The position numbers and the translations under genes are program-made. Of a DNA stretch of 10,401 nt, positions 1-10,401 are shown piece after piece; within the stretch, counting starts at the first letter, position 1, and each line of letters opens with the position of its first letter. Under the pieces are notes generated by a model, which had not been told where the DNA came from, did no database searches, and saw nothing but the letters and a program-made list of their open reading frames with translations. The DNA is from Candidatus Heimdallarchaeota archaeon (GTDB lineage Archaea; Asgardarchaeota; Heimdallarchaeia; Heimdallarchaeales; Heimdallarchaeaceae), in NCBI GenBank assembly GCA_016839945.1, contig JAEOTE010000131.1, positions 1-10,401 on the forward strand. The letters are read 5' to 3'.

Positions 1-651
1 AACTAAAGATTCAGTTTGTTCCTGAAGATGTTGAAGATAAAATCCTCCAATTTTCGGATCTTGCATCATAGCTTTTTTGACAAATCGAGGATCCATATCT
101 ATCAAGTAAATGGAACGGGAAAAATCTCGTTCGAAAGATTTTATGATAAACTTCCCGATCGTGTGAGGGCCTGTTGGGGCTGTTATAAGCCAGTTCATAT
201 GGAGTGGGATACCAAAATCCTCAAAGTTGTCTAAACATAATTTCACTAGTACATTGAAAGTGTCTGTGTTCATGTCAAAGTAATCCATTTGGTCAAAATC
301 TATTCGTGAAGTATTCGCCATTAGCACATTTTTTTTGGGTTTGCCTTGAGTTCCACCTGTTTCTGCTACTTGCATTTCTGCACCTGGAGTCTTTGCATAC
401 CATTGATAAGCAAACTTTGTTGTTGTATAGCTTATTGGAAAATTTCTGAATACATCTGGTGGAGTGGGTCCTAGCTTTTCAGCTAAGTCTTTCCAATCAT
501 TAATATCCCCTTTTTTGACATTCCTTTCCTTTGCTAGTTTTATCAAATAAGGAGAGCCTTGTTCTTCTGAAATCGCTATATCTACGCATTCTACTAGAAA
601 ATCATTTTGATTTATTTTATTTACTATTTTTGTTTTTGCGGATGTAGCCAT
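1..651 (-). CDS. EhpF/GriC-like (ANL superfamily, PaaK-like) aryl/acyl-carboxylate adenylating enzyme, 3' partial (217 aa in window; not in ORF track)
   Basis: Manual translation from ATG at 651 is open to position 1: MATSAKTKIVNKINQNDFLVECVDIAISEEQGSPYLIK...AETGGTQGKPKK...NWLITAPTGPHTIGK...IDMDPRFVKKAMMQDPKIGGFYLQHLQEQTESLV. It has the ANL P-loop (ETGGTQGKPK) plus PTGPH and ID(M)DPRxVK motifs that I recall from EhpF/GriC-type proteins. GGTGA lies 7 nt upstream (659-663). Confidence 0.82.
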   Translation of the reverse strand, partial: MATSAKTKIVNKINQNDFLVECVDIAISEEQGSPYLIKLAKERNVKKGDINDWKDLAEKLGPTPPDVFRNFPISYTTTKFAYQWYAKTPGAEMQVAETGGTQGKPKKNVLMANTSRIDFDQMDYFDMNTDTFNVLVKLCLDNFEDFGIPLHMNWLITAPTGPHTIGKFIIKSFERDFSRSIYLIDMDPRFVKKAMMQDPKIGGFYLQHLQEQTESLV

Positions 652-658
652 AAAGTCT

Positions 659-693
659 TCACCGTTAATATTTTCAGTAAAATCATTTATAAA
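659..693 (-). promoter_or_regulatory. Archaeal TATA box (TTTATAAA, 686-693) and SD-like GGTGA (659-663) for the 651..1 gene
   Basis: TTTATAAA lies 35-42 nt upstream of the ATG, and GGTGA has a 7-nt spacer to the ATG. Confidence 0.55.
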
Positions 694-718
694 GGAGGAC
701 AACTCACCGACAAAATTC
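679..718 (+). repeat. Imperfect direct repeat, copy 1 (partner at 2846-2885)
   Basis: aaaatcatttataaaggaggacaactcaccgacaaaattc vs aaaatcacatataaaggagagtaaatcacctacaaaaatc: 32/40 identical, ungapped, offset 2167 bp. Confidence 0.75.
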
Positions 719-882
719 TATTCTGAATTTTAAAAAATACAAATAAAGTTCCAGAATATGATTTAATGGCATGGTCAGTGTTAAATTTGTAGAAAAGGTA
801 TTGAAGAGAGTAATATAAGAACAAATCTAAATAATATGCACAAAATTAATAAATTGAGTTTTATTAGATTTACAAAAAATCT

Positions 883-2844
883 GTGGAAATGATGAAAAAT
901 TCAAAAATTAATTTCTTTATTTTATTCTCCATTTTAGTCTTCACAGCACTCATGAATGTATCTCAGATCCAAGGCATTACTCCAAATGCATATTTAATTC
1001 TAAAAACCACAGATAATCGTAATTGGTCTGAATATGCTGATTATATTCAGGAATTTTTAGATGAAATAAATATTAATGTAACTATAAAAATAGAAACAGA
1101 TGCAACATGGTATGAATCTCTTCTTACAGGTGATTTTGATTTAGCAATTGTTGATTATTATAATTTTGCCACTGATCCTGATATGAGATCAATATTTACT
1201 GAATCCGCATTTTTTAATTGGATGGGGCTTTCCAAAACAATGCCATATGGAAATGAAAGTGAGAACTTGTTACATTATGGAATAACCATAACTGATCCTG
1301 AAGAGAGAAAAGAAATTTATGATGATTGGCAAAAGATTCAAATGGACAAAATACTTGGATTTTTCCCAATATTAATAGAAAAAAAATATGCTGTTGTTTG
1401 GGACAATATTGTAAATTACGATATAAGAAGAGATTTAGTTAATAACTTACCTTACATGTATTACAATGGTCTACATGAAGGACAATCTTCTTTTGATGCA
1501 TTAAACATCCATAAAAAGCAATGGTTTAACCTTAATCCTCTTTATCAGAGAAAAGCTTTTGATTTTCCAGATATGGAAGTAACTAGCTTAATTATGGATC
1601 CAATTGCTCAGGGAAATATTAACAATTTTTGGATTAAAACAGGTTTAATATATGATTGGGAAAAGATAGATGAAGCACATTACAAATTTTACTTAAGGGA
1701 CAATATTTTTTGGAATCCTTCTTACAATGTTTTATCCCGAACTAGTTTGTCTCCTCCTCTTGGTTCTATTCCACCTGGAGAACTAATGAGAGGTCTCAGA
1801 TCTTACGCATATAGTGATGGTTCAAATCAACAAGTACTCGCAAAAGATGTTGTGTTTACCTATTTAGCTCTTGCAAATCCTCTTACAAGTCCATATTACA
1901 ACGATTATTCATGGATTAGAAATATATACGTTGATCCTTTTGATGATTTGGCATATCATTTGCATACTGGTAATGAATATGGCTTGGTAGATTATGCTCC
2001 AATGTTTACAGATATGTCTCTTTTTACACTTCCTGAGTTTTTCCTTAATTCTTCTGATACTAGTGTTAGTTATTCTTCTGGTGGAGTAAAAACTATTGGA
2101 TTTTATGATGGTATTAATGAAACTACTCAATGGATTAATTTTGAGAAATCAGCATTTGGTTGTGGGCAATATATGTTAGATTATTATGACCTTGACTCTA
2201 TAACAGTATTACAAAGAAGCCCATATTGGCACGGAATTGGTCCAATTGATGGTTCTACTGGAAAACAACCTTTTGTAGATACAATTAATATTCATGTTTT
2301 TGATGATTTAGGGAATGCTTTTACATCTTTTAAATCTGGGAATCTTGATATCTTTAATTTCAACAATATTGATGGAGAATATTCTAATCTTATACCTGCA
2401 ATCAAAGAAATGGCATCTAATACAAAATACAACTTATATTCAGATTATCTTGGTTTTGCAGATGTTCTTCTAATAAATCTTAAACGTCCATTTGTTGGTG
2501 GAGCAGATAATTATATTTATCTAGATGAACCGGGAAAAGAGGAATACACAAAAGGTTTAGCAGTTCGTAAAGCAATTTGTTATTCGATTGATAGAGAAAT
2601 AATGAATAGAGAAATTCATAGTGAGAACTTGGAGGTTTTTCATAGTCCAATATTACCAATACTTGATTATTGGTATTATGATTACATAATCAAATATGAT
2701 AAAGATATACATTCTGCTAATGAATGGTTGTTAGCAGCAGATTATGATATTAAAACTAAATCTGCAAACTTTTTATTTAGCATATTTATAATAGGAATTA
2801 TTGTTACGTCTCAAAAAATGAAAAGAAGAATAAAAAACCTTTAA
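883..2844 (+). CDS. Family-5 (OppA/DppA-like) ABC solute-binding protein, circularly permuted, with N-terminal signal peptide and C-terminal membrane anchor
   Basis: Signal peptide MKNSKINFFILFSILVFTAL (true start may be ATG 889 or 892). Family-5 motifs: GDFDL, DPEERKEIY, LNPLY, YKFYLRD, AKDVVFTY, FGCGQY, LQRSPYW, VRKAICYSIDRE. C-terminal hydrophobic segment plus basic tail FLFSIFIIGIIVTSQKMKRR. Confidence 0.88.
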   Translation: MEMMKNSKINFFILFSILVFTALMNVSQIQGITPNAYLILKTTDNRNWSEYADYIQEFLDEININVTIKIETDATWYESLLTGDFDLAIVDYYNFATDPDMRSIFTESAFFNWMGLSKTMPYGNESENLLHYGITITDPEERKEIYDDWQKIQMDKILGFFPILIEKKYAVVWDNIVNYDIRRDLVNNLPYMYYNGLHEGQSSFDALNIHKKQWFNLNPLYQRKAFDFPDMEVTSLIMDPIAQGNINNFWIKTGLIYDWEKIDEAHYKFYLRDNIFWNPSYNVLSRTSLSPPLGSIPPGELMRGLRSYAYSDGSNQQVLAKDVVFTYLALANPLTSPYYNDYSWIRNIYVDPFDDLAYHLHTGNEYGLVDYAPMFTDMSLFTLPEFFLNSSDTSVSYSSGGVKTIGFYDGINETTQWINFEKSAFGCGQYMLDYYDLDSITVLQRSPYWHGIGPIDGSTGKQPFVDTINIHVFDDLGNAFTSFKSGNLDIFNFNNIDGEYSNLIPAIKEMASNTKYNLYSDYLGFADVLLINLKRPFVGGADNYIYLDEPGKEEYTKGLAVRKAICYSIDREIMNREIHSENLEVFHSPILPILDYWYYDYIIKYDKDIHSANEWLLAADYDIKTKSANFLFSIFIIGIIVTSQKMKRRIKNL

Positions 2845-2845
2845 A

Positions 2846-2885
2846 AAAATCACATATAAAGGAGAGTAAATCACCTACAAAAATC
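2846..2885 (+). repeat. Imperfect direct repeat, copy 2 (partner at 679-718)
   Basis: Starts 2 nt after the SBP stop codon. Contains the dyad GGAGA-gtaaa-TCACC (2861-2875). Confidence 0.75.
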
Positions 2886-2920
2886 AGATTAACTGTATTT
2901 GTTGTTCTTTTCACCTAAAT

Positions 2921-2970
2921 TTTATATATATCTCGTTTTTTATCGAATACTATTACATTATAGAAAGGTA
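2921..2970 (+). promoter_or_regulatory. TATA box (TTTATATA, 2921-2928) and SD-like AAGGTA (2965-2970) for the GNAT gene
   Basis: Motif spacing fits a TTG start at 2977 rather than the ORF-track start at 2899. Confidence 0.5.
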
Positions 2971-2976
2971 ATTATT

Positions 2977-4074
2977 TTGACTAAAAAAGAAGATTCTGAA
3001 TATTCTATCGAGCAATTTACTCTCAAAAAGAAAAACTTTGATGAAATCACAAATCTGTTGAATGATGCATTCTTAACTGATGAAGCAGCTATAGAAGAAG
3101 GAGCAACGATTACATTTACCAAGGAAAGTTTTGATCTATTTTTTAATTCTCCTATAACTGATCCAGATCTTTTTGTACGAGCAATACACAAGCCTACAAA
3201 TCAAATAGTAGGTTTTCTTGGAAACATACCAAGAACTGTGTCACTCTTTGGTGAAAAATATAATTTTATCATTCCTGGATGGTTAAGTGTTGCTCCAGAT
3301 CATAGAAGGCAAGGAATAGCTACCTTAATGGGTAGAAAGCTTCTGGAACTAGTCTCTAACTCAGAAAAATATGAAGGAGGTTTCGCTTTATTTGAACCAG
3401 AACAATATGGAAAAGATATAACTAGAATTGTAGTTTCTTCTAGTAATTTAAAGCAAGTAACTGTTTATTCCACAAAGAAATTCGTAGTTCGAGCTTTTAG
3501 TGCGAAGAAGCTTTCAGAAGTTGTTAAACTTAAATGGTACGAAAAACTTGCTTTCAGAGTTTTACAAGGTGTCAAGGAGAAAGATAATCCTCGAATTCGG
3601 CTTTTTGAGAAGAAGGATACTGAAGCACTCTACAAACTTATACTTGAGTATGAAGATAGATGTGATTTGGCAGTCATTCATGACAAAGAAGATTTCGCAA
3701 GAATAGTTAATCACCCACTTTTTCTCTGTGTTGTTCATGAGAATGATAAAGGTGAAATTGATGGATTTATTGGAGTATGGGAATTCCTTTTATCTGGTTT
3801 TGGGAAGACATATCCTTTCGGATGGTTAGATATGGTTCATATATATCAAATTACTACTAAAGAGGCGAAAGAGTTGTGCAATTTTCTGTGTGTAAAAGCA
3901 AAAGAACGAGGGTGGATTGGAATACAATGTCCATATTTTCCATACTATGATTCTAAACCTTTCATTAAAGCTAAATTCATTTTCTATACAAAGAGGTTAT
4001 TCTTGGATATGGGGATGCTAAAAGGGATGAACTTACCTAGAAAAATTGAATCTATCTTTTTAGATTGGAGATAA
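2977..4074 (+). CDS. Tandem-GNAT N-acyltransferase, N-myristoyltransferase (NMT)-like fold (~365 aa)
   Basis: GNAT motif A: WLSVAPDHRRQGIA. A second GNAT domain begins at RIRLFEKKD. Blocks are colinear with the NMT core (see findings). Start moved to TTG 2977 because the 26 upstream codons overlap the TATA/SD signals and are low-complexity. Confidence 0.8.
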   Translation: MTKKEDSEYSIEQFTLKKKNFDEITNLLNDAFLTDEAAIEEGATITFTKESFDLFFNSPITDPDLFVRAIHKPTNQIVGFLGNIPRTVSLFGEKYNFIIPGWLSVAPDHRRQGIATLMGRKLLELVSNSEKYEGGFALFEPEQYGKDITRIVVSSSNLKQVTVYSTKKFVVRAFSAKKLSEVVKLKWYEKLAFRVLQGVKEKDNPRIRLFEKKDTEALYKLILEYEDRCDLAVIHDKEDFARIVNHPLFLCVVHENDKGEIDGFIGVWEFLLSGFGKTYPFGWLDMVHIYQITTKEAKELCNFLCVKAKERGWIGIQCPYFPYYDSKPFIKAKFIFYTKRLFLDMGMLKGMNLPRKIESIFLDWR

Positions 4075-4106: not shown

Positions 4107-4691
4107 TTAGTATGTTTCACATTGAAGCTCGAAATAGTTGTGAGGATGATCACATACAGGGCAAACTTTGGGTGGTTCAGTTCCATCATGAACATAACCA
4201 CATTTTCTGCATACCCATGCTACTTCTTCTTTTTTCTCGAAAACAGATTTCCCTTGAACTTCTTTTAGAAGTTTCTTATATCTCTCTTCATGATGAACTT
4301 CTGCTCTTCCAATGGCTAACAGTCTGATAGCAATCTTTTGTAATCCTTCTTCTTTGGCTTTCTCTGCAAATTCAGGATACATAATTGTATTTTCATAGTG
4401 TTCTCCATCTATAGCTGCTTGAAGATTAGCTACTGTATCACTTAGAGTTGTTGGTACTGTTGCTTCTACATCAAATTCAGGTAAATCCAATTTTTCTTTT
4501 TTCAGTAGTTCATTTAGCATTTTAAATAGTATTTTAGCATGTTCTTTTTCATTCATTGCAGTTACACTAAAGATATCTGCTATTTGCTCATAGCCTTCTT
4601 TTTTTGCTATTTTGGAATAGAATGTATATCTATTTCTAGCTTGACTTTCTCCCAAATATGCTTTGGCTAGATTATTTATTGTTTCCTTCAT
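4107..4691 (-). CDS. rbr: Rubrerythrin
   Basis: Di-iron ferritin-like motifs GESQARNRY, NEKEHAK, GEHYE, AEVHHEERY. C-terminal rubredoxin CRKCG...CPVCDH. AAGGTG upstream of the ATG. Confidence 0.97.
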   Translation of the reverse strand: MKETINNLAKAYLGESQARNRYTFYSKIAKKEGYEQIADIFSVTAMNEKEHAKILFKMLNELLKKEKLDLPEFDVEATVPTTLSDTVANLQAAIDGEHYENTIMYPEFAEKAKEEGLQKIAIRLLAIGRAEVHHEERYKKLLKEVQGKSVFEKKEEVAWVCRKCGYVHDGTEPPKVCPVCDHPHNYFELQCETY

Positions 4692-4761: not shown

Positions 4762-6042
4762 TCAAGTGTTAGGTTTGTATCTGGATATCTTTAGCTTTAT
4801 TGTTGCTAACAATAAAGGAAAAGCTAAGTTGGGTTTGAAGAAAGTTAATTTTGGTTCTGAACCCGTCATAATTGTTGCCCATCTTAATAGATATTTTACT
4901 CCTTTTTTATTACAAAGGTATGCAAAAGCATCTAGAAAAATCGGCATTCTGGCTAACACTTTGACCATTCGTGAAGACCATTTGAAATCTTTTCCAAAGG
5001 ACTTCATCCATCTCTTTTGATATAATTTCAGCATGCTTTCGCTAAAATCATTTTTTTCAAAAGCTTCTTCCAATGTTTTAGCAGCTATTTCTCCAGCATC
5101 CATCGCATACTGTATTCCTTCACCAGTTAGAGGATCAATATGACCAGCTGCATCTCCAACAATTAGAAAGTTATTAGCATAACTTTTCTTTACTCCTCCT
5201 AATCTTAAAGGTCCTGATTTCATTGGTTCAACCTTTGTTTTTGGACCAAGAGCTTCCGCAACATAAGGTTCTCCTGTAAGGAATAACTGATGCACATGCT
5301 GTAAATCTTCAGCTTTATATCTCCCTCCTGGAATTATATAACAACAAAAAACTACATCACCATCAGCTTCTTTGAAAAGAGCTAGATAACCTGGAACAAT
5401 ATCTTGAGTATAAAGACACACTCCATCATCTTTGTATTGATGGGTTCCAGCTTTGATGTAAACACTACTGCAAACAGCTTCTGGAGGTTTGTCCAGAATA
5501 CCTAAAGAACGAGCGATTTTTGAAGTAGCTCCATCTGCAGCAATCAGAACCTTTGTTCTGATAATCGCCTGTTTATCATTGAAGGATTTTACTTCCCAGA
5601 ATTTCTTGTCTTCAGAAAACTTAACTTCCTTAACATTATACTCTTCAATTAGTTTTGCTCCTTCTCTAACAGCTGCACGAACCATCTTTTCATCCATAAT
5701 CTCCCTTTTAATAGACATCATCAGATGACTTCCAAGTTCTTCAGCTGAATTATCGATATATGTGATTCTTCTGGGACTTACAAGACCACCAACAGCTGAA
5801 TAATGTCCTTTACCTTCTTCTAGAATTTCTTGTAAAACTCCCATCCTTTCCAGGTGGATTTGGGCTCTCTGTGAAATAGCATCTCCACAAATCTTTCTTC
5901 TAGGGAATTTCTCTTTATCTAAAAGAACAACGTTCTTTCCTTGTTTAGCTAAATAAAAGGCAGTAGAAGAACCACCAGGACCTGCTCCTATAATGCAGAC
6001 ATCAAAGATTTTTTCGTTCTCTTTGTTTGTGTTATTTGTCAT
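4762..6042 (-). CDS. Geranylgeranyl-reductase-family FAD-dependent oxidoreductase
   Basis: Motifs IGAGPGGS, FPRRKICGDAIS, LIAADGATS and LIVGDAAGHIDPLTGEGIQYAM. Confidence 0.9.
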   Translation of the reverse strand: MTNNTNKENEKIFDVCIIGAGPGGSSTAFYLAKQGKNVVLLDKEKFPRRKICGDAISQRAQIHLERMGVLQEILEEGKGHYSAVGGLVSPRRITYIDNSAEELGSHLMMSIKREIMDEKMVRAAVREGAKLIEEYNVKEVKFSEDKKFWEVKSFNDKQAIIRTKVLIAADGATSKIARSLGILDKPPEAVCSSVYIKAGTHQYKDDGVCLYTQDIVPGYLALFKEADGDVVFCCYIIPGGRYKAEDLQHVHQLFLTGEPYVAEALGPKTKVEPMKSGPLRLGGVKKSYANNFLIVGDAAGHIDPLTGEGIQYAMDAGEIAAKTLEEAFEKNDFSESMLKLYQKRWMKSFGKDFKWSSRMVKVLARMPIFLDAFAYLCNKKGVKYLLRWATIMTGSEPKLTFFKPNLAFPLLLATIKLKISRYKPNT

Positions 6043-6086: not shown

Positions 6087-6452
6087 TTAAACATAGAAAT
6101 TAATTGTTTGATACCTCTCAATTATCTCCTTCTTCTTCTTTATGTCCTCTTTTTTGTGTTCAAGATCCCAGATAGTGACTTCTTTTATTTCATCATAATC
6201 CAAGAAAGTTACTTTTGCAAGAGAGATATTCTTATCTTCATCAATGATTATTTTTCCTTCATCAGCAAGCTGATCTATCATCAAATAAATCTGTAAATAG
6301 TGATTGAGAAGATTGTGATTGTTCCAATACTTTTCGAAGATTTCTTGAATGTTGATTTTTCCTTTTTCCAGCAATATTTTTTCCAATTGTTTTTCTAAGT
6401 TCTTCTTCGCTAATTCCTCTGTTTCAGGAGTATCTCCCCATAATCGCACCAT
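6087..6452 (-). CDS. Hypothetical protein (121 aa), possible winged-helix domain plus short C-terminal charged helix
   Basis: Open frame with codon usage like neighbouring genes. The pattern LEKILLEKGKINIQEIF...IYLMIDQLADEGKIII resembles a wHTH. Confidence 0.65.
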   Translation of the reverse strand: MVRLWGDTPETEELAKKNLEKQLEKILLEKGKINIQEIFEKYWNNHNLLNHYLQIYLMIDQLADEGKIIIDEDKNISLAKVTFLDYDEIKEVTIWDLEHKKEDIKKKKEIIERYQTINFYV

Positions 6453-6712: not shown

Positions 6713-7546
6713 ATGATTGAAGAAAATCTTAAGTCGCTTATTGAAATTTGTGGTTTGAATATAGGTGATTTTGACCCTGTTAAGGCAAACAAACTCTATC
6801 TTCAAGCTGACAAAATGCGTGGTAAGGAGAATTGGAAAAAAGCTGACACACTAATCCGTCAAGCTATAGAATGCAACCCTTACGAATTCCGATATTGGAC
6901 TCTTTTTGGTCTATGTCTAAACAATCTCTTTAGGGAAGATGATGATTTATTTGAACAATCACAAGCAGTTTTCGATTATACAATGGGGAGTATTGATTTC
7001 GATGGTATGAACCGTTTTGTTGAGGATTTAAAAGCTTTTGAAGAACTGGAAGAGAAATCAGCGACTAATCTTCAAGAAGGTCGATGGGTTCAAGCTGAAA
7101 AAGGATTTAAGGAACTCTTAGAAATAAAAAATAATCATCATGAAGCATTTCGTAATATGCTCGATGCTAACTTAGATGTATCCAAGGATTTTATGTATTG
7201 GAATGCGATTGCTATCTCTGTTAAGAATCAAGGCAGAATCGATGAAGCAGAGGAAGCTTTTAGGAAATCAATCGAGTTAAATCCAAAAGAAGTAACTACT
7301 TGGTATTTTCTAGCTAATATGCTTGCTGATAATGATAGGTTCGAAGAAGCAGAAGCGATGTATAGAGAAGCTTTGAAGTTAGATTCAAAAAGCAGTAGAA
7401 TCTGGTGTGATTTTGGTTCATGTCTCGCAAATCAAGGAAAAGTTGCGGAAGCTGAAAAACCTTTCAGAAAAGCTGTGAAATTGGATCCTTCGGATAAATC
7501 TGCAAAAGAACTTTTACAGAGATGTTTAGATTTTCTGGGAAAATAA
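6713..7546 (+). CDS. Tetratricopeptide-repeat protein
   Basis: Three consecutive 34-aa TPRs at 7190-7495 (FMYWNAIA...ELNPKE / VTTWYFLA...KLDSKS / SRIWCDFG...KLDPSD), plus degenerate TPRs near the N-terminus (…QAIECNPYEFRYW). Confidence 0.92.
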   Translation: MIEENLKSLIEICGLNIGDFDPVKANKLYLQADKMRGKENWKKADTLIRQAIECNPYEFRYWTLFGLCLNNLFREDDDLFEQSQAVFDYTMGSIDFDGMNRFVEDLKAFEELEEKSATNLQEGRWVQAEKGFKELLEIKNNHHEAFRNMLDANLDVSKDFMYWNAIAISVKNQGRIDEAEEAFRKSIELNPKEVTTWYFLANMLADNDRFEEAEAMYREALKLDSKSSRIWCDFGSCLANQGKVAEAEKPFRKAVKLDPSDKSAKELLQRCLDFLGK

Positions 7547-7652: not shown

Positions 7653-10401
7653 TTGTTTTCGAAAAGAAAAATGAGTATTTTAATAATTTTCAGTTTTTTT
7701 ATTATGAATCTTTCTTTGTCTTCAAGTTTAAATCCAATTCAGAATAGTTTTGAAGAAAAGACAATTTCTTCTTCAATAGAGGATGATACTGTTTTAAAAG
7801 ATCATAATCTAGTTAATGTTGATCTATCTCAAGATAAAGATAAAGATCTTTTTCAAGATTCCTTCAAGAAAAAATTGATATTGAGTGATTCTTTAGTTGA
7901 ATATGAAGCTATTCTTTCTTTGAAAGGACCTGTTAGTCATTCAGATAGATTTTTCTTAGAGATGAATGATATAGAAATTTTAAGCGAATATTCAGTAATT
8001 TATGCTTTACACATAAAAGGAACTGCTGAATCTTTGCTGAGAGTTCAGAATCTAGGAACATTGCAGTATCTAGAAGAAAATGCTTTAGGTAAAGCTCTAA
8101 TGCATGATGTAACAACAGATTTCCAAGTAAGAAAAGTTTGGCAAGTAGCTCAAGGCTATGGTTACAATGGTGATCCTAATACAGCAATTGCAATCCTTGA
8201 TACAGGAGTGGATGATACTCATCCTGATGCGAATTTTAATGTCGTTTTCTGGGCTGATTTTGTTGGAGCTTCATCTGGAGCAACAGGAGATGAATATCTA
8301 ACTGCAACTGATAAAGGAGAGCATGGTTCACACTGCGCTAGTATAGCAGCTTCACAAGGAGCTTCTAGTAGCAGTTCTACTGTTAAGATACAAGCTTCAG
8401 GATATCTTCATGCAACTGATGGATATGCATGGCAATATACCTGGTTTTACCTTGGTTCAGCTCAAACGGTAACCATTAATTATTCTTGGGAAGGTACTGG
8501 CTCAACTTATGTAGGATTTATTGATTCTACAACTGCTTGGGTAGCTAATAGTTTTAGTACTCCCGATAGTTCCTCACCAGGAACATTCTCACATTCATTT
8601 AGTTCAGGTGGTTGGTACTGCGCTATGTATGGAAACGCTGTAGGAGCAGGTGGACGTTATTTCTCTGGAGAAGTAGTTTATGATACAGGTTGGTCAAATC
8701 CTTATTCAGATGGTAAAGGAGCTTATGCTGGTGTTGCTCCAGATAGTAATATTGTTGGTCTCAAGGTTCTTGATGATGTAGGAGTTGGACCTACAAATTC
8801 TCTTCTTGATGCTCTTCAATGGTTATATGATTACGGGCAAAACTATAACGCAACTGTTGCTAGCATGAGTATAGGTTGGCCATCAGTAGTTTCATCAATA
8901 GATTCAGCGGTTAGTTCTTTGGTTAGGAATAAAGGAATTGTATGTGTTGTAGCTGCAGGGAATAGTGGAACTTCTTCAGGAGGAGTATATTCTCCTGGTT
9001 CGTGTCCTGATGCGATAACTGTTGGTTCAGTAAACAAAGCTAGTGAAATTGCTTACTATAGTAGTAATGGACATGTTAGTCAAATGCATGCAAAACCTGA
9101 TGTTGTCGCTCCTGGTGGGAGTGTTGCTAGTTCAGGAAGCTCTGCTATTCGTCAACCAATTATTGCAGCTGATTCAAACGATGCTGATAATGCTTATGAT
9201 TATAATACTGCTATTGAATATCCTCCAAAAACTGATTATTATTCTGACAATTATAGAGCAATGCAAGGAACATCTATGGCTACACCATTTGTAGCTGGTT
9301 TAGTACAACTAGTAATTGATGCTATGAGACAAGAAGGAGATTGGGATTATTCTTGGGATACTGCAAAAAGAGTAAAGTCAATTATTTGTATGACTTCTTC
9401 TGAAGTGAGAAACATACAAGGATCAATCAGTTCAGGAGGAGAAACATACGATGGAGATGGAGATGCAATTGCCCAAAACCCACAACTTCAGAGAACAGAA
9501 AAAGATTTAGTTGAAGGTTGGGGTGTGGTTTCTGTAGAAGGAGCGATTCAAGCTGTTACAGAATGGTTAAGCGTAGGTACTACTGACACTGTTTGGTTAT
9601 CTGGAAATCAGAATGGTAACCATGTTGTAACTAGGAAAATAAATCTGGAATCAGATGTGATTTACAGGATGGATGGTTATTATGTTGTAAGTGTCTTTAT
9701 AGATGCAGATTTGTTATTATTCGACAGCATTCCTGATCAATATGGAAATCCTATATTAATTACTAACTGCACTTTTGGTCCCTTAGCTATTGATTCTACC
9801 GTATTTACTGTTCCTAGAGATGATACTTACTATCTTGTTGTAAAATGGATTGATGGTAATTATAATGGTCAATGTAGTTTTACAATCAAAGAAGTAATCA
9901 GATTAACTTCTCCAGCTGAAGGTTCAATTCTAAATTCTGGAACATTAATCTCCTTTACAGCTGATACTTCTGCAATTGCCTCACTTAATTATCGTTGGGA
10001 TGGTCTAGGAATGATGCCTTTAGATCCACCTTATCATACACCAATGATTGCAGGAGACGGGATACATACCTTAACAGTAATTGTGGAAGATGTACTTATC
10101 GATACAGAACAAATGTCATTCAGTTTTACAACGGATGATACAGATCCAATAATTGCAATTACTGGAGCAACGAATGATACAAAAGTTAATGGGGGAACGG
10201 TTGTTTCAATACAAATCACTGAAGTTAACCTTGATCAAGCACTCTATAATTGGAATAGTGGTACAGATACAACCTTAACATCACCTTATGAAGCTATAGT
10301 ACCAGATACAGATGGGGAACATGTTCTATCTGTATATGCAGATGATTTAGCAGGAAACTCAAAAAGAGAATTATTTGTTTTCAGAGTTGGAGTTAGTAAA
10401 T
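7653..10401 (+). CDS. Secreted S8 subtilisin-like serine peptidase with prodomain, internal insertion, PPC-like domain and Ig-like repeats; 3' partial (916 codons in window; not in ORF track)
   Basis: Frame is open from TTG 7653 (GGGGT SD at 7641-7645; in-frame stop at 7650) to the window end. Signal peptide MFSKRKMSILIIFSFFIMNLSLSS. Catalytic Asp in AILDTG (8199), His in HGSHCASIAA (8322), oxyanion Asn in AAGN (8961), Ser in GTSMATP (9273). Confidence 0.95.
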   Translation, partial: MFSKRKMSILIIFSFFIMNLSLSSSLNPIQNSFEEKTISSSIEDDTVLKDHNLVNVDLSQDKDKDLFQDSFKKKLILSDSLVEYEAILSLKGPVSHSDRFFLEMNDIEILSEYSVIYALHIKGTAESLLRVQNLGTLQYLEENALGKALMHDVTTDFQVRKVWQVAQGYGYNGDPNTAIAILDTGVDDTHPDANFNVVFWADFVGASSGATGDEYLTATDKGEHGSHCASIAASQGASSSSSTVKIQASGYLHATDGYAWQYTWFYLGSAQTVTINYSWEGTGSTYVGFIDSTTAWVANSFSTPDSSSPGTFSHSFSSGGWYCAMYGNAVGAGGRYFSGEVVYDTGWSNPYSDGKGAYAGVAPDSNIVGLKVLDDVGVGPTNSLLDALQWLYDYGQNYNATVASMSIGWPSVVSSIDSAVSSLVRNKGIVCVVAAGNSGTSSGGVYSPGSCPDAITVGSVNKASEIAYYSSNGHVSQMHAKPDVVAPGGSVASSGSSAIRQPIIAADSNDADNAYDYNTAIEYPPKTDYYSDNYRAMQGTSMATPFVAGLVQLVIDAMRQEGDWDYSWDTAKRVKSIICMTSSEVRNIQGSISSGGETYDGDGDAIAQNPQLQRTEKDLVEGWGVVSVEGAIQAVTEWLSVGTTDTVWLSGNQNGNHVVTRKINLESDVIYRMDGYYVVSVFIDADLLLFDSIPDQYGNPILITNCTFGPLAIDSTVFTVPRDDTYYLVVKWIDGNYNGQCSFTIKEVIRLTSPAEGSILNSGTLISFTADTSAIASLNYRWDGLGMMPLDPPYHTPMIAGDGIHTLTVIVEDVLIDTEQMSFSFTTDDTDPIIAITGATNDTKVNGGTVVSIQITEVNLDQALYNWNSGTDTTLTSPYEAIVPDTDGEHVLSVYADDLAGNSKRELFVFRVGVSK
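9897..10388 (+). repeat. Two tandem ~82-aa Ig-like (Big-type) protein repeats in the subtilase C-terminus
   Basis: Both units share the pattern SP/GA..G..I..YxWD/N..L..PY..DGxHxLxV..xD (9897-10148 and 10149-10388), joined by a DDTDP linker. Confidence 0.75.

Follow-up and report, generated by a model that had tools for sequence, protein, structure and literature searches.

A double-GNAT protein of Asgard archaea with whole-length homology to eukaryotic N-myristoyltransferase

N-myristoyltransferase (NMT) is, to our knowledge, treated as an enzyme of eukaryotes only, and we know of no explanation of its origin. The question of whether it has a relative in archaea is raised by a 10,401-nucleotide stretch of DNA from Candidatus Heimdallarchaeota archaeon (contig JAEOTE010000131.1), referred to below in its whole length as the window. 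It carries an uninterrupted open reading frame of 365 codons (2977–4074, + strand) with a TTG start at 2977 and a stop codon at 4072–4074, and a called 365-residue protein in a public protein collection (P0002) is identical to its product. An initial annotation of the window had described this product as a two-domain GCN5-related N-acetyltransferase (GNAT) resembling NMT from end to end, and as a candidate sister or precursor of NMT. Here, we find that the window protein is a real, whole-length, distant homologue of NMT and belongs to a superfamily of NMT-type double-GNAT proteins that spans archaea and bacteria. Taken as a whole, the evidence is best explained by an active, acyl-coenzyme A (CoA)-dependent N-acyltransferase of this type, to which we assign a probability of about 0.4. 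On this reading, the protein is not an orthologue of eukaryotic NMT in function. The host is an Asgard archaeon, as had been supposed: the named orthologues are Asgard and the genome contains Arf-family and ESCRT-III genes.

The homology is already apparent from the single sequence. When the window protein was compared with all PDB sequences using phmmer, the ten best matches were all NMTs (best E value 4.4e-5), with the N- and C-terminal lobes matched separately. A profile of 32 orthologues (A1) matched NMT with an E value of 3.7e-13, and 36 NMT sequence groups preceded the first non-NMT, AAC(3)-I (E 0.017); Eis had an E value of 0.55. Alignment of A1 with a profile of ten eukaryote-type NMTs (A3) by hhalign gave a probability of 99.4% and an E value of 9e-22 over 307 columns, covering residues 18–349 and thus both lobes. 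The ordered sequence blocks that had been matched to NMT in the initial annotation were each reproduced by one of these methods, and the positions given for them were correct (G79-F80 at 3211, R172 at 3490 and V253 at 3733). The blocks NLLNDAFLTDE, QIVGFLGNIP and WLSVAPDHR align with yeast NMT in phmmer. In the hhalign alignment with A3, FVVRAFSAKKLSEV pairs with YHHRSLNYKKLVEV, IRLFEKKDTEALYKLILEY with MRPMTEEDSPAVYKLLIAY, VVHENDKGEIDGF with YVVEDESGELTDF, and KAKERGW with LAKQQEF. Features retained relative to NMT include the equivalent of the acidic Ab-loop (D35, E36 and E39-E40-G42), F47, which pairs with Y192, and the K-F of the KFGxGDG signature. In a Pfam scan, the best match was to Acetyltransf_9 (3.3e-8, 34 bits), followed by the NMT N-domain (6.6e-5) and NMT_C (0.012). 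The Pfam cut-off for PF01233 is passed by a paralogue in the same genome (38.1 bits) and by 33 of the 301 Asgard genomes searched, and PF02799 was matched in three of the 32 orthologues, weakly in each.

The predicted fold agrees with the sequence comparisons. The AlphaFold2 model computed on A1 has a predicted local distance difference test (pLDDT) score of 91 and a predicted template-modeling (pTM) score of 0.88, and consists of two GNAT lobes in one chain. In a Foldseek search of the model against the PDB, the 50 best matches were all NMTs (E about 1e-22, TM score about 0.76). An exhaustive VIA search put the yeast and Cryptosporidium NMTs on top, with Z scores of 31.3 and 29.8 and a root-mean-square deviation (rmsd) of 2.8–2.9 Å over 325–334 residues, and further VIA superpositions on NMTs gave Z 31–33 and rmsd 2.5–2.8 Å over ≈333 residues. 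After NMT came MAB_4324 (22.2), Eis (20.2), other tandem GNATs (14–19) and FemA/FemX (12–13). Eis and FemAB, which had been named as structural matches that might do as well as NMT, therefore fall well behind it (Eis 20, FemA 13). In both searches, the model displays the two-lobe topology that is specific to NMT.

In the superpositions, residue 365 of the model is aligned with the C-terminal residue of NMT in each of six species (human Q496, yeast 455, C. albicans 451, A. fumigatus 492, L. major 421 and P. vivax 410), which bears out the coincidence of C-termini noted previously; pLDDT in the tail is 77–79. Against the human NMT deltaC2 and deltaC3 truncations, the alignment stops at model residues 364 and 362, respectively. 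Thus, the tail superposes on the catalytic tail of NMT roughly in register. This C-terminal tail (4024–4071, + strand), delimited by VIA on the model and by the orthologue ends, terminates in FLDWR. Among full-length orthologues, Arg is at the end in 105 of 105 and Trp-Arg in 101; the GWxGxQ motif lies 54 residues from the chain end in 91 of 100. Such a fixed chain end would be expected if the terminal carboxylate, the Arg, or both are functional.

The remaining functional parts, all on the + strand, can be laid out by alignment and conservation. The N-terminal GNAT lobe (residues 6–200; 2992–3576) is predicted to bind acyl-CoA, on the basis of the Acetyltransf_9 and NMT N-domain matches and the alignment with the NMT N-lobe. 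Within it, P100-G-W-L-S-V105 (3274–3291) is aligned with the NMT strand that contains EINFLC. P100 and V105 are invariant, the strand reads PxWLxV in orthologues, and by analogy with NMT the backbone of W102-L103 may be the counterpart of the F-L oxyanion hole. The invariant H109 and GNAT motif A (R110-R-Q-G113-I-A115), the putative CoA pyrophosphate-binding loop by general GNAT knowledge, follow at 3301–3321; motif A (R/Q-x-x-G-x-A) is confined to the N-lobe, which is also the case in NMT. E140 (3394–3396) is placed by the model and alignment at the end of strand β5, near the Thr of NMT YTAG, with a register uncertainty of ±1 residue. This position is acidic in all 32 orthologues and is not conserved in a neighboring prokaryotic clade, which makes it a family-specific feature. 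The C-terminal GNAT lobe (residues 205–349; 3589–4023), defined by conservation, hhalign and the NMT_C match, has no CoA motif. Most of the invariant residues are found there: R208, D214, G263, G274, G282-W283, G312-W313, Q317, P319, Y323 and K339.

In the mechanism that we propose, the N-lobe would bind acyl-CoA via motif A (R110-x-x-G113-x-A115), the thioester would be polarized by the backbone of the bulged strand at W102-L103, and the acceptor amine would be held between the lobes. The acceptor proton would then be taken up, as in NMT, by the carboxylate, presumed buried, at the chain end (the invariant R365). What the analysis establishes is the homology, the fold, where the chain end lies in the model and how the residues are conserved. 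The window protein is likely to be catalytically active as an acyl-CoA N-acyltransferase and to employ its chain end in the way NMT does; catalysis through the C-terminus, taken by itself, is somewhat more probable than not.

More than 100 orthologues of 360–370 residues were found, with 37–69% identity to the window protein and 21 invariant columns. The named ones come from Heimdall-, Loki- (including Lokiarchaeum ossiferum, P0091), Thor-, Gerd-, Sigyn- and Hodarchaeota. In the 301-genome search of the phylum, strong matches were found in 24 of 28 genomes of the window's own family, in 11 of 11 of a second family of the same class, in 7 of 7 of a family of another class, which includes a closed 4.4-Mb genome with an orthologue, and in 1 of 76 of a further family; the 26 other sampled Asgard families gave no strong match. 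A search with the Pfam NMT model recovered the same three families, with single weak matches in two others and none in 14 control genomes. The window genome (3.0 Mb, 88% complete) has two paralogues with 45% identity. The copy on another contig (C105, 10311–11396), which is above the Pfam NMT cut-off, is more typical of the family than that in the window. We also observed a 43%-identical orthologue (P0069) on a 124-kb contig labeled “candidate division Zixibacteria”, which is either a mis-binned Asgard contig or the product of transfer to a bacterium.

The Asgard family is not isolated. An exhaustive profile search of 1.84 billion representatives yielded 263 proteins at E < 1e-3, which fall into tiers: the Asgard family itself (E < 1e-99), proteins of 330–410 residues that align end to end (E 1e-29 to 1e-10), and eukaryote-type NMTs, starting at E 7.6e-10. 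Members of a large second-tier clade are named Deltaproteobacteria, Bradymonadales, Chloroflexi, Acidobacteria and Aminicenantes. Other clades of this tier are labeled Sigynarchaeota or Thermoplasmata, and one adjoins a PGF-CTERM protein and looks archaeal by that neighbor. Many second-tier proteins end in Y-x-D/E-x-R, and many clades of the superfamily in Y-x-[DE]-x-[RK]. When the Asgard family was aligned with five other clades of the superfamily, hhalign gave probabilities of 99.5–100%, and we regard membership of the window protein in this archaeal and bacterial superfamily as firm. A recent paper contains a passing remark that NMT-type structures occur in archaea and bacteria although NMT is reported as eukaryote-only, and its supplement text, as far as searched, does not list the Asgard proteins (Nat Commun 2025; PMC12219266). 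A literature search on N-myristoyltransferase and Asgard archaea found no paper linking the two.

How close the Asgard family stands to eukaryotic NMT depends on the comparison. With a hidden Markov model of eukaryotic NMT, the family has a median of 61.6 bits, compared to 26.8 for the other recovered prokaryotic clades. The hhalign scores against eukaryotic NMT were 163 for the Asgard family, 175 for a clade denoted P0136, 139 for the Thermoplasmata-type, 130 for the Sigyn-type, 117 for the HVLWR and 105 for the bacterial P0147 clade. The P0136 clade passes both Pfam NMT cut-offs and is, by profile, as NMT-like as the Asgard family. (At the locus of one P0136-type member, L010 1759–3432, − strand, an AMP-binding, acyl-CoA synthetase-like gene lies two genes away and an alanine dehydrogenase-like gene adjoins.) All these clades were recruited via the Asgard profile, so that prokaryotic proteins more closely related to NMT could have escaped the search.

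The Asgard family (100%), the eukaryotic clade and the Sigyn-type clade each received full support in a 44-row LG+C20 tree, in which the Sigyn-type clade groups with the Asgard family at 86/81 and the backbone is a polytomy. A tree constrained to group eukaryotes, the Asgard family and the Sigyn-type clade was 0.07 log-likelihood units better than the free tree (approximately unbiased (AU) test, p 0.52). However, this group was chosen after inspection of a quick tree, and all three clades are long-stemmed; sisterhood with NMT is therefore compatible with the data, and neither demonstrated nor rejected. What stands of the proposed sister or precursor of NMT is a homologue whose closest solved relative is NMT; the specific kinship does not follow, given the unresolved backbone, the wider superfamily and the existence of at least one equally NMT-like clade that looks archaeal. 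We consider it unlikely that eukaryotic NMT and the Asgard family descend from an ancestor shared by these two alone and that acylation of protein N-termini, possibly with lipid, is already carried out by the archaeal enzyme.

Several observations weigh against an activity as close to that of NMT as the fold might suggest. The window protein itself is below both Pfam NMT cut-offs (PF01233, 23.3 vs. 25 bits; PF02799, 15.8 vs. 27.9 bits). The signatures EINFLCxHK and KFGxGDG are absent, as had been cautioned from the start: the segments aligned with them by hhalign read IIPGWLSVAP and KFIFYTK. Just the K-F pair is left of the second, the invariant K339 stands in place of a Gly, and the peptide-recognizing GDG is missing. 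The model begins at human residue 153, and the ≈40 residues before the first strand of NMT cores, which in NMT help to enclose myristoyl-CoA, have no counterpart. The distribution is patchy, with strong matches in four of the 30 sampled Asgard families. Moreover, each of the two closed genomes of a sister genus has a single copy, which is broken at about residue 145–150. In the first (L025, G074:C1:1137800-1141700, 499–3436), it is split at about residue 150 by a 1.75-kb insert that carries a 500-residue TnpB/Cas12f1-like gene on the opposite strand and has 20-nt inverted repeats at its flanks. In the other (L026, G026:C1:1011000-1013400, 615–1835), the middle ≈228 bp (76 codons, residues 75–150) are inverted in place. 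Two closed genomes with broken sole copies imply that the gene is dispensable, and the family is non-essential and lineage-restricted within Asgard archaea. Characterized prokaryotic tandem GNATs mostly act on small molecules, and the bacterial relatives occur in phyla in which we know of no such protein modification.

Nor does gene content point to a protein substrate. The NMT-like gene does not co-occur with Arf: in one family, f5, of the window's class, which has large genomes, Arf is present in 21 of 21 genomes and the NMT-like gene in none of the 21. It does not co-occur with acyl-CoA-binding protein (ACBP, PF00887) in the 301 Asgard genomes either, and the families that carry it have no ACBP. 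(ACBP was seen in 10 of the 21 f5 genomes and in two single genomes elsewhere.) The window genome has 7–8 strong Arf-family genes, with readable N-termini such as MSFMSNFSQW, MSMFGSFSTW, MSFLLSLF and MFASLFS. Four of the five readable N-termini have Ser or Phe, not Gly, at position 2, and by their sequence they look like amphipathic helices without Gly2. Among the Arf-like and ESCRT-III genes, canonical Gly2 N-termini of the kind that the initial annotation had suggested looking for (MGxxxS) are mostly absent, with a possible MG start in one gene of each group. Asgard Arfs have been reported to carry no myristoylation signals and to associate with membranes independently of myristate (PMC11914678; bioRxiv 2024.02.28.582541). 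Protein or peptide N-acylation, which the initial annotation took to be implied, is a putative activity: Gly2 is mostly absent, and neither a conserved partner gene nor co-occurrence with Arf or ACBP was found.

The strongest competing explanation is a small-molecule N-acyl- or N-acetyltransferase with the same fold and chemistry, whose acceptor would be a polyamine, a free amino acid, an aminosugar or a thiol precursor, as with MshD, GlmA-type enzymes, HisAT or N-acyl amino acid synthases. In such an enzyme, an anionic moiety of the substrate would be bound by R365, K339 and R208, all of them invariant. This is a serious contender, slightly behind the NMT-type acyltransferase. A patchy, duplicated and dispensable gene is typical of accessory metabolism, the peptide-recognition motifs of NMT are not retained, relatives occur in several bacterial phyla, and the best Pfam match is the generic Acetyltransf_9. 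However, tandem GNATs that act on small molecules superpose far less well (Z 14–22, rmsd 3.4–5.9 Å) than NMT (Z 31–33, rmsd 2.5–2.8 Å), and the segments that line the NMT groove, none of which is missing, show the highest conservation in the protein. No biosynthetic cluster surrounds the gene at the seven loci compared (the window, the paralogue and five orthologues, including that of L. ossiferum). There is no conserved neighbor at these loci either; only a PALP gene, found upstream in two, recurs.

For the NMT-type acyltransferase that we favor, the nature of the acceptor follows from the same balance. We lean slightly toward the free α-amine of a peptide or protein N-terminus, other than the canonical Gly-x-x-x-Ser signal, because the architecture of the NMT groove is kept at an rmsd of 2.5–2.8 Å, its lining segments are the most conserved, and small-molecule tandem GNATs fit far worse; this assignment is tentative. 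A small amine is almost as likely, because of the patchy, dispensable and duplicated pattern of the gene and its bacterial relatives. A long-chain acyl donor is doubtful. The window genome encodes one AMP-binding enzyme and one acyl-CoA dehydrogenase; therefore, acyl-CoA chemistry is present but not prominent.

An Eis-like enzyme that acetylates Lys N-ε-amines at multiple sites on proteins, or aminoglycoside-like amines, would account for the best Pfam family, since Acetyltransf_9 (34 bits) is the family of the Eis N-domain. Eis chains also align end to end with the model (Z 20), and NMT itself can acylate Lys, according to the titles of PDB entries 6pau and 6sk2. The fit is poor nevertheless (rmsd 5.9 Å; sequence E 0.55), and the SCP2-like third domain of Eis is absent from the window protein, which has 365 residues in two lobes and no further Pfam match. 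We consider this explanation improbable.

Still less probable is a bona fide ancestral NMT, a Gly-specific N-myristoyltransferase using C12–C16 chains that targets Asgard Arf-like or ESCRT proteins to membranes and is the direct precursor of the eukaryotic enzyme. It would fit with NMT being the closest known family, with the constrained tree that unites NMT, the Asgard family and its Asgard sister clade being as likely as the free one (AU p 0.52), with the Asgard family being among the two most NMT-like prokaryotic clades, and with the candidate MG start in each of the Arf-like and ESCRT-III groups. In L. ossiferum, a Ras/Arf-like small GTPase is encoded 200 bp upstream of the orthologue and in the same orientation (L005 6191–6799, + strand), and this proximity could be read in the same way; its product, however, begins with MTASK. 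The absent signatures, the polytomy, the prevalence of Ser or Phe at position 2, the lack of the gene in the Arf-rich f5 genomes and the sparse acyl-CoA enzymes of the window genome all speak against an ancestral NMT, as does the myristate-independent membrane binding published for Asgard Arfs (PMC11914678). Canonical Gly-myristoylation is unlikely. In a metagenome-assembled Loki genome, Roadblock/LC7 and LAMTOR5-like genes were seen ≈5 kb from the orthologue (L004 1504–2306, − strand); GTPase-related neighbors in Loki genomes may well arise by chance, as these genomes are rich in GTPases. Finally, a catalytically dead pseudo-enzyme or binding protein, which would suit a gene disrupted in two closed genomes without an intact second copy, is scarcely credible: across Asgard classes, at 37–69% identity, the family has retained motif A, the bulged strand and the exact chain end along with 21 invariant residues.

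In the window, the gene stands alone. A TATA-like box of archaeal type, TTTTATATATAT (2920–2931, + strand), lies ≈50 nt upstream of the start and suggests that the gene has its own promoter. It is followed by a Shine–Dalgarno-like purine stretch, AAAGGT (2964–2969, + strand), whose GGT is 7 nt before the TTG. Given these two elements, which we read from the sequence, a longer reading frame starting at 2899 is unlikely to represent the true start. Orthologue starts fall 5–10 residues ahead of the conserved EYxIEQF. The upstream gene on the same strand encodes a family-5 solute-binding protein (883–2844). Downstream are two convergent genes, encoding a rubrerythrin (4107–4691, − strand) and a member of the geranylgeranyl reductase family (4762–6042, − strand; TIGR02032, 174 bits, above the cut-off). 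At the edge of the contig, 1–702 (− strand) encodes the N-terminal 234 residues of a gene product running off the end; it weakly resembles EhpF-type (PaaK/F390-synthetase-like) adenylate-forming enzymes (E 1.5e-4), gave neither a Pfam nor an NCBIfam match, and was not found beside orthologues elsewhere. A functional module made up of this adenylating enzyme, the transferase and the geranylgeranyl reductase was considered and rejected, as the arrangement is absent at every orthologue locus examined. The window also contains a 121-residue open reading frame (6087–6452, − strand) without a family match, and a TPR-repeat protein gene (6713–7546, + strand) ahead of a large subtilase gene (7653–10400, + strand; >916 residues), which runs off the contig.

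A conserved Asgard family with the fold and chain end of NMT is the most concrete starting point for asking whether N-terminal acylation predates eukaryotes, and it opens a second question, how a generic double GNAT became a lipid transferase. Since orthologues are found in the cultured L. ossiferum (P0091) and in the closed 4.4-Mb genome, the question is directly testable. If an exclusive ancestor with NMT and N-terminal acylation were both true, lipidation of protein N-termini would be older than eukaryotes, and cultured Asgard archaea with the gene would offer a way to study it. The value of the family in this respect is tempered by its being patchy, dispensable and embedded in a broader prokaryotic superfamily.

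Among known systems, the FemABX proteins combine a tandem GNAT-like fold with a coiled-coil insertion and an aminoacyl-tRNA donor; they match at Z 12–13 with 6–7% identity. The window protein has a CoA motif A. HisAT/NAT16-type enzymes are likewise double-GNAT amine acyltransferases and can accept long acyl-CoA in vitro (PMC12219266). They superpose with a Z score of 15.2, and the active site of HisAT contains a Trp from a β-hairpin instead of the C-terminus. Mycobacterial Eis (PF13527 family) and MAB_4324 are tandem GNATs as well, and the N-lobe of the window protein matches Acetyltransf_9. The C-terminus of Eis also reaches the active site. However, the Z scores are 20–22, compared to 31–33 for NMT, and the sequence E value is 0.55 for Eis and 3.7e-13 for NMT; Eis moreover has a third, SCP2-like domain and forms hexamers, whereas the window protein has two lobes only. 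The prokaryotic NMT-type double-GNAT proteins (PMC12219266) share the length of 330–410 residues, the double GNAT, the predicted placement of the C-terminus at the active site and NMT homology in both lobes. The Asgard family is set apart from the other clades by its own motifs (EEGATI, PxWLxVHxxH, FEPEQ, AGFG..PFGWLD, GWxGxQTPYIPYF and the DWR end), and is closer to eukaryotic NMT than the bacterial clades are (hhalign score 163 vs. 105–117). Compared to eukaryotic NMT itself (EC 2.3.1.97; PF01233 and PF02799; human NMT1 and yeast Nmt1p), the identity is 13–18%. The window protein has neither the ≈40 residues that lead up to the first strand nor the N-terminal extension that binds ribosomes; it has an additional helix-containing segment of ≈16 residues after β5, a family-specific acidic residue at position 140, and, in its family, an invariant C-terminal Trp-Arg instead of the hydrophobic tail; the Asgard gene is patchy and non-essential, whereas NMT is universal in eukaryotes. 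Common to both are the whole-length tandem-GNAT fold, colinear blocks in both lobes, the restriction of the CoA motif to the N-lobe, the bulged strand and, in the model, a chain end at the position of the catalytic carboxylate.

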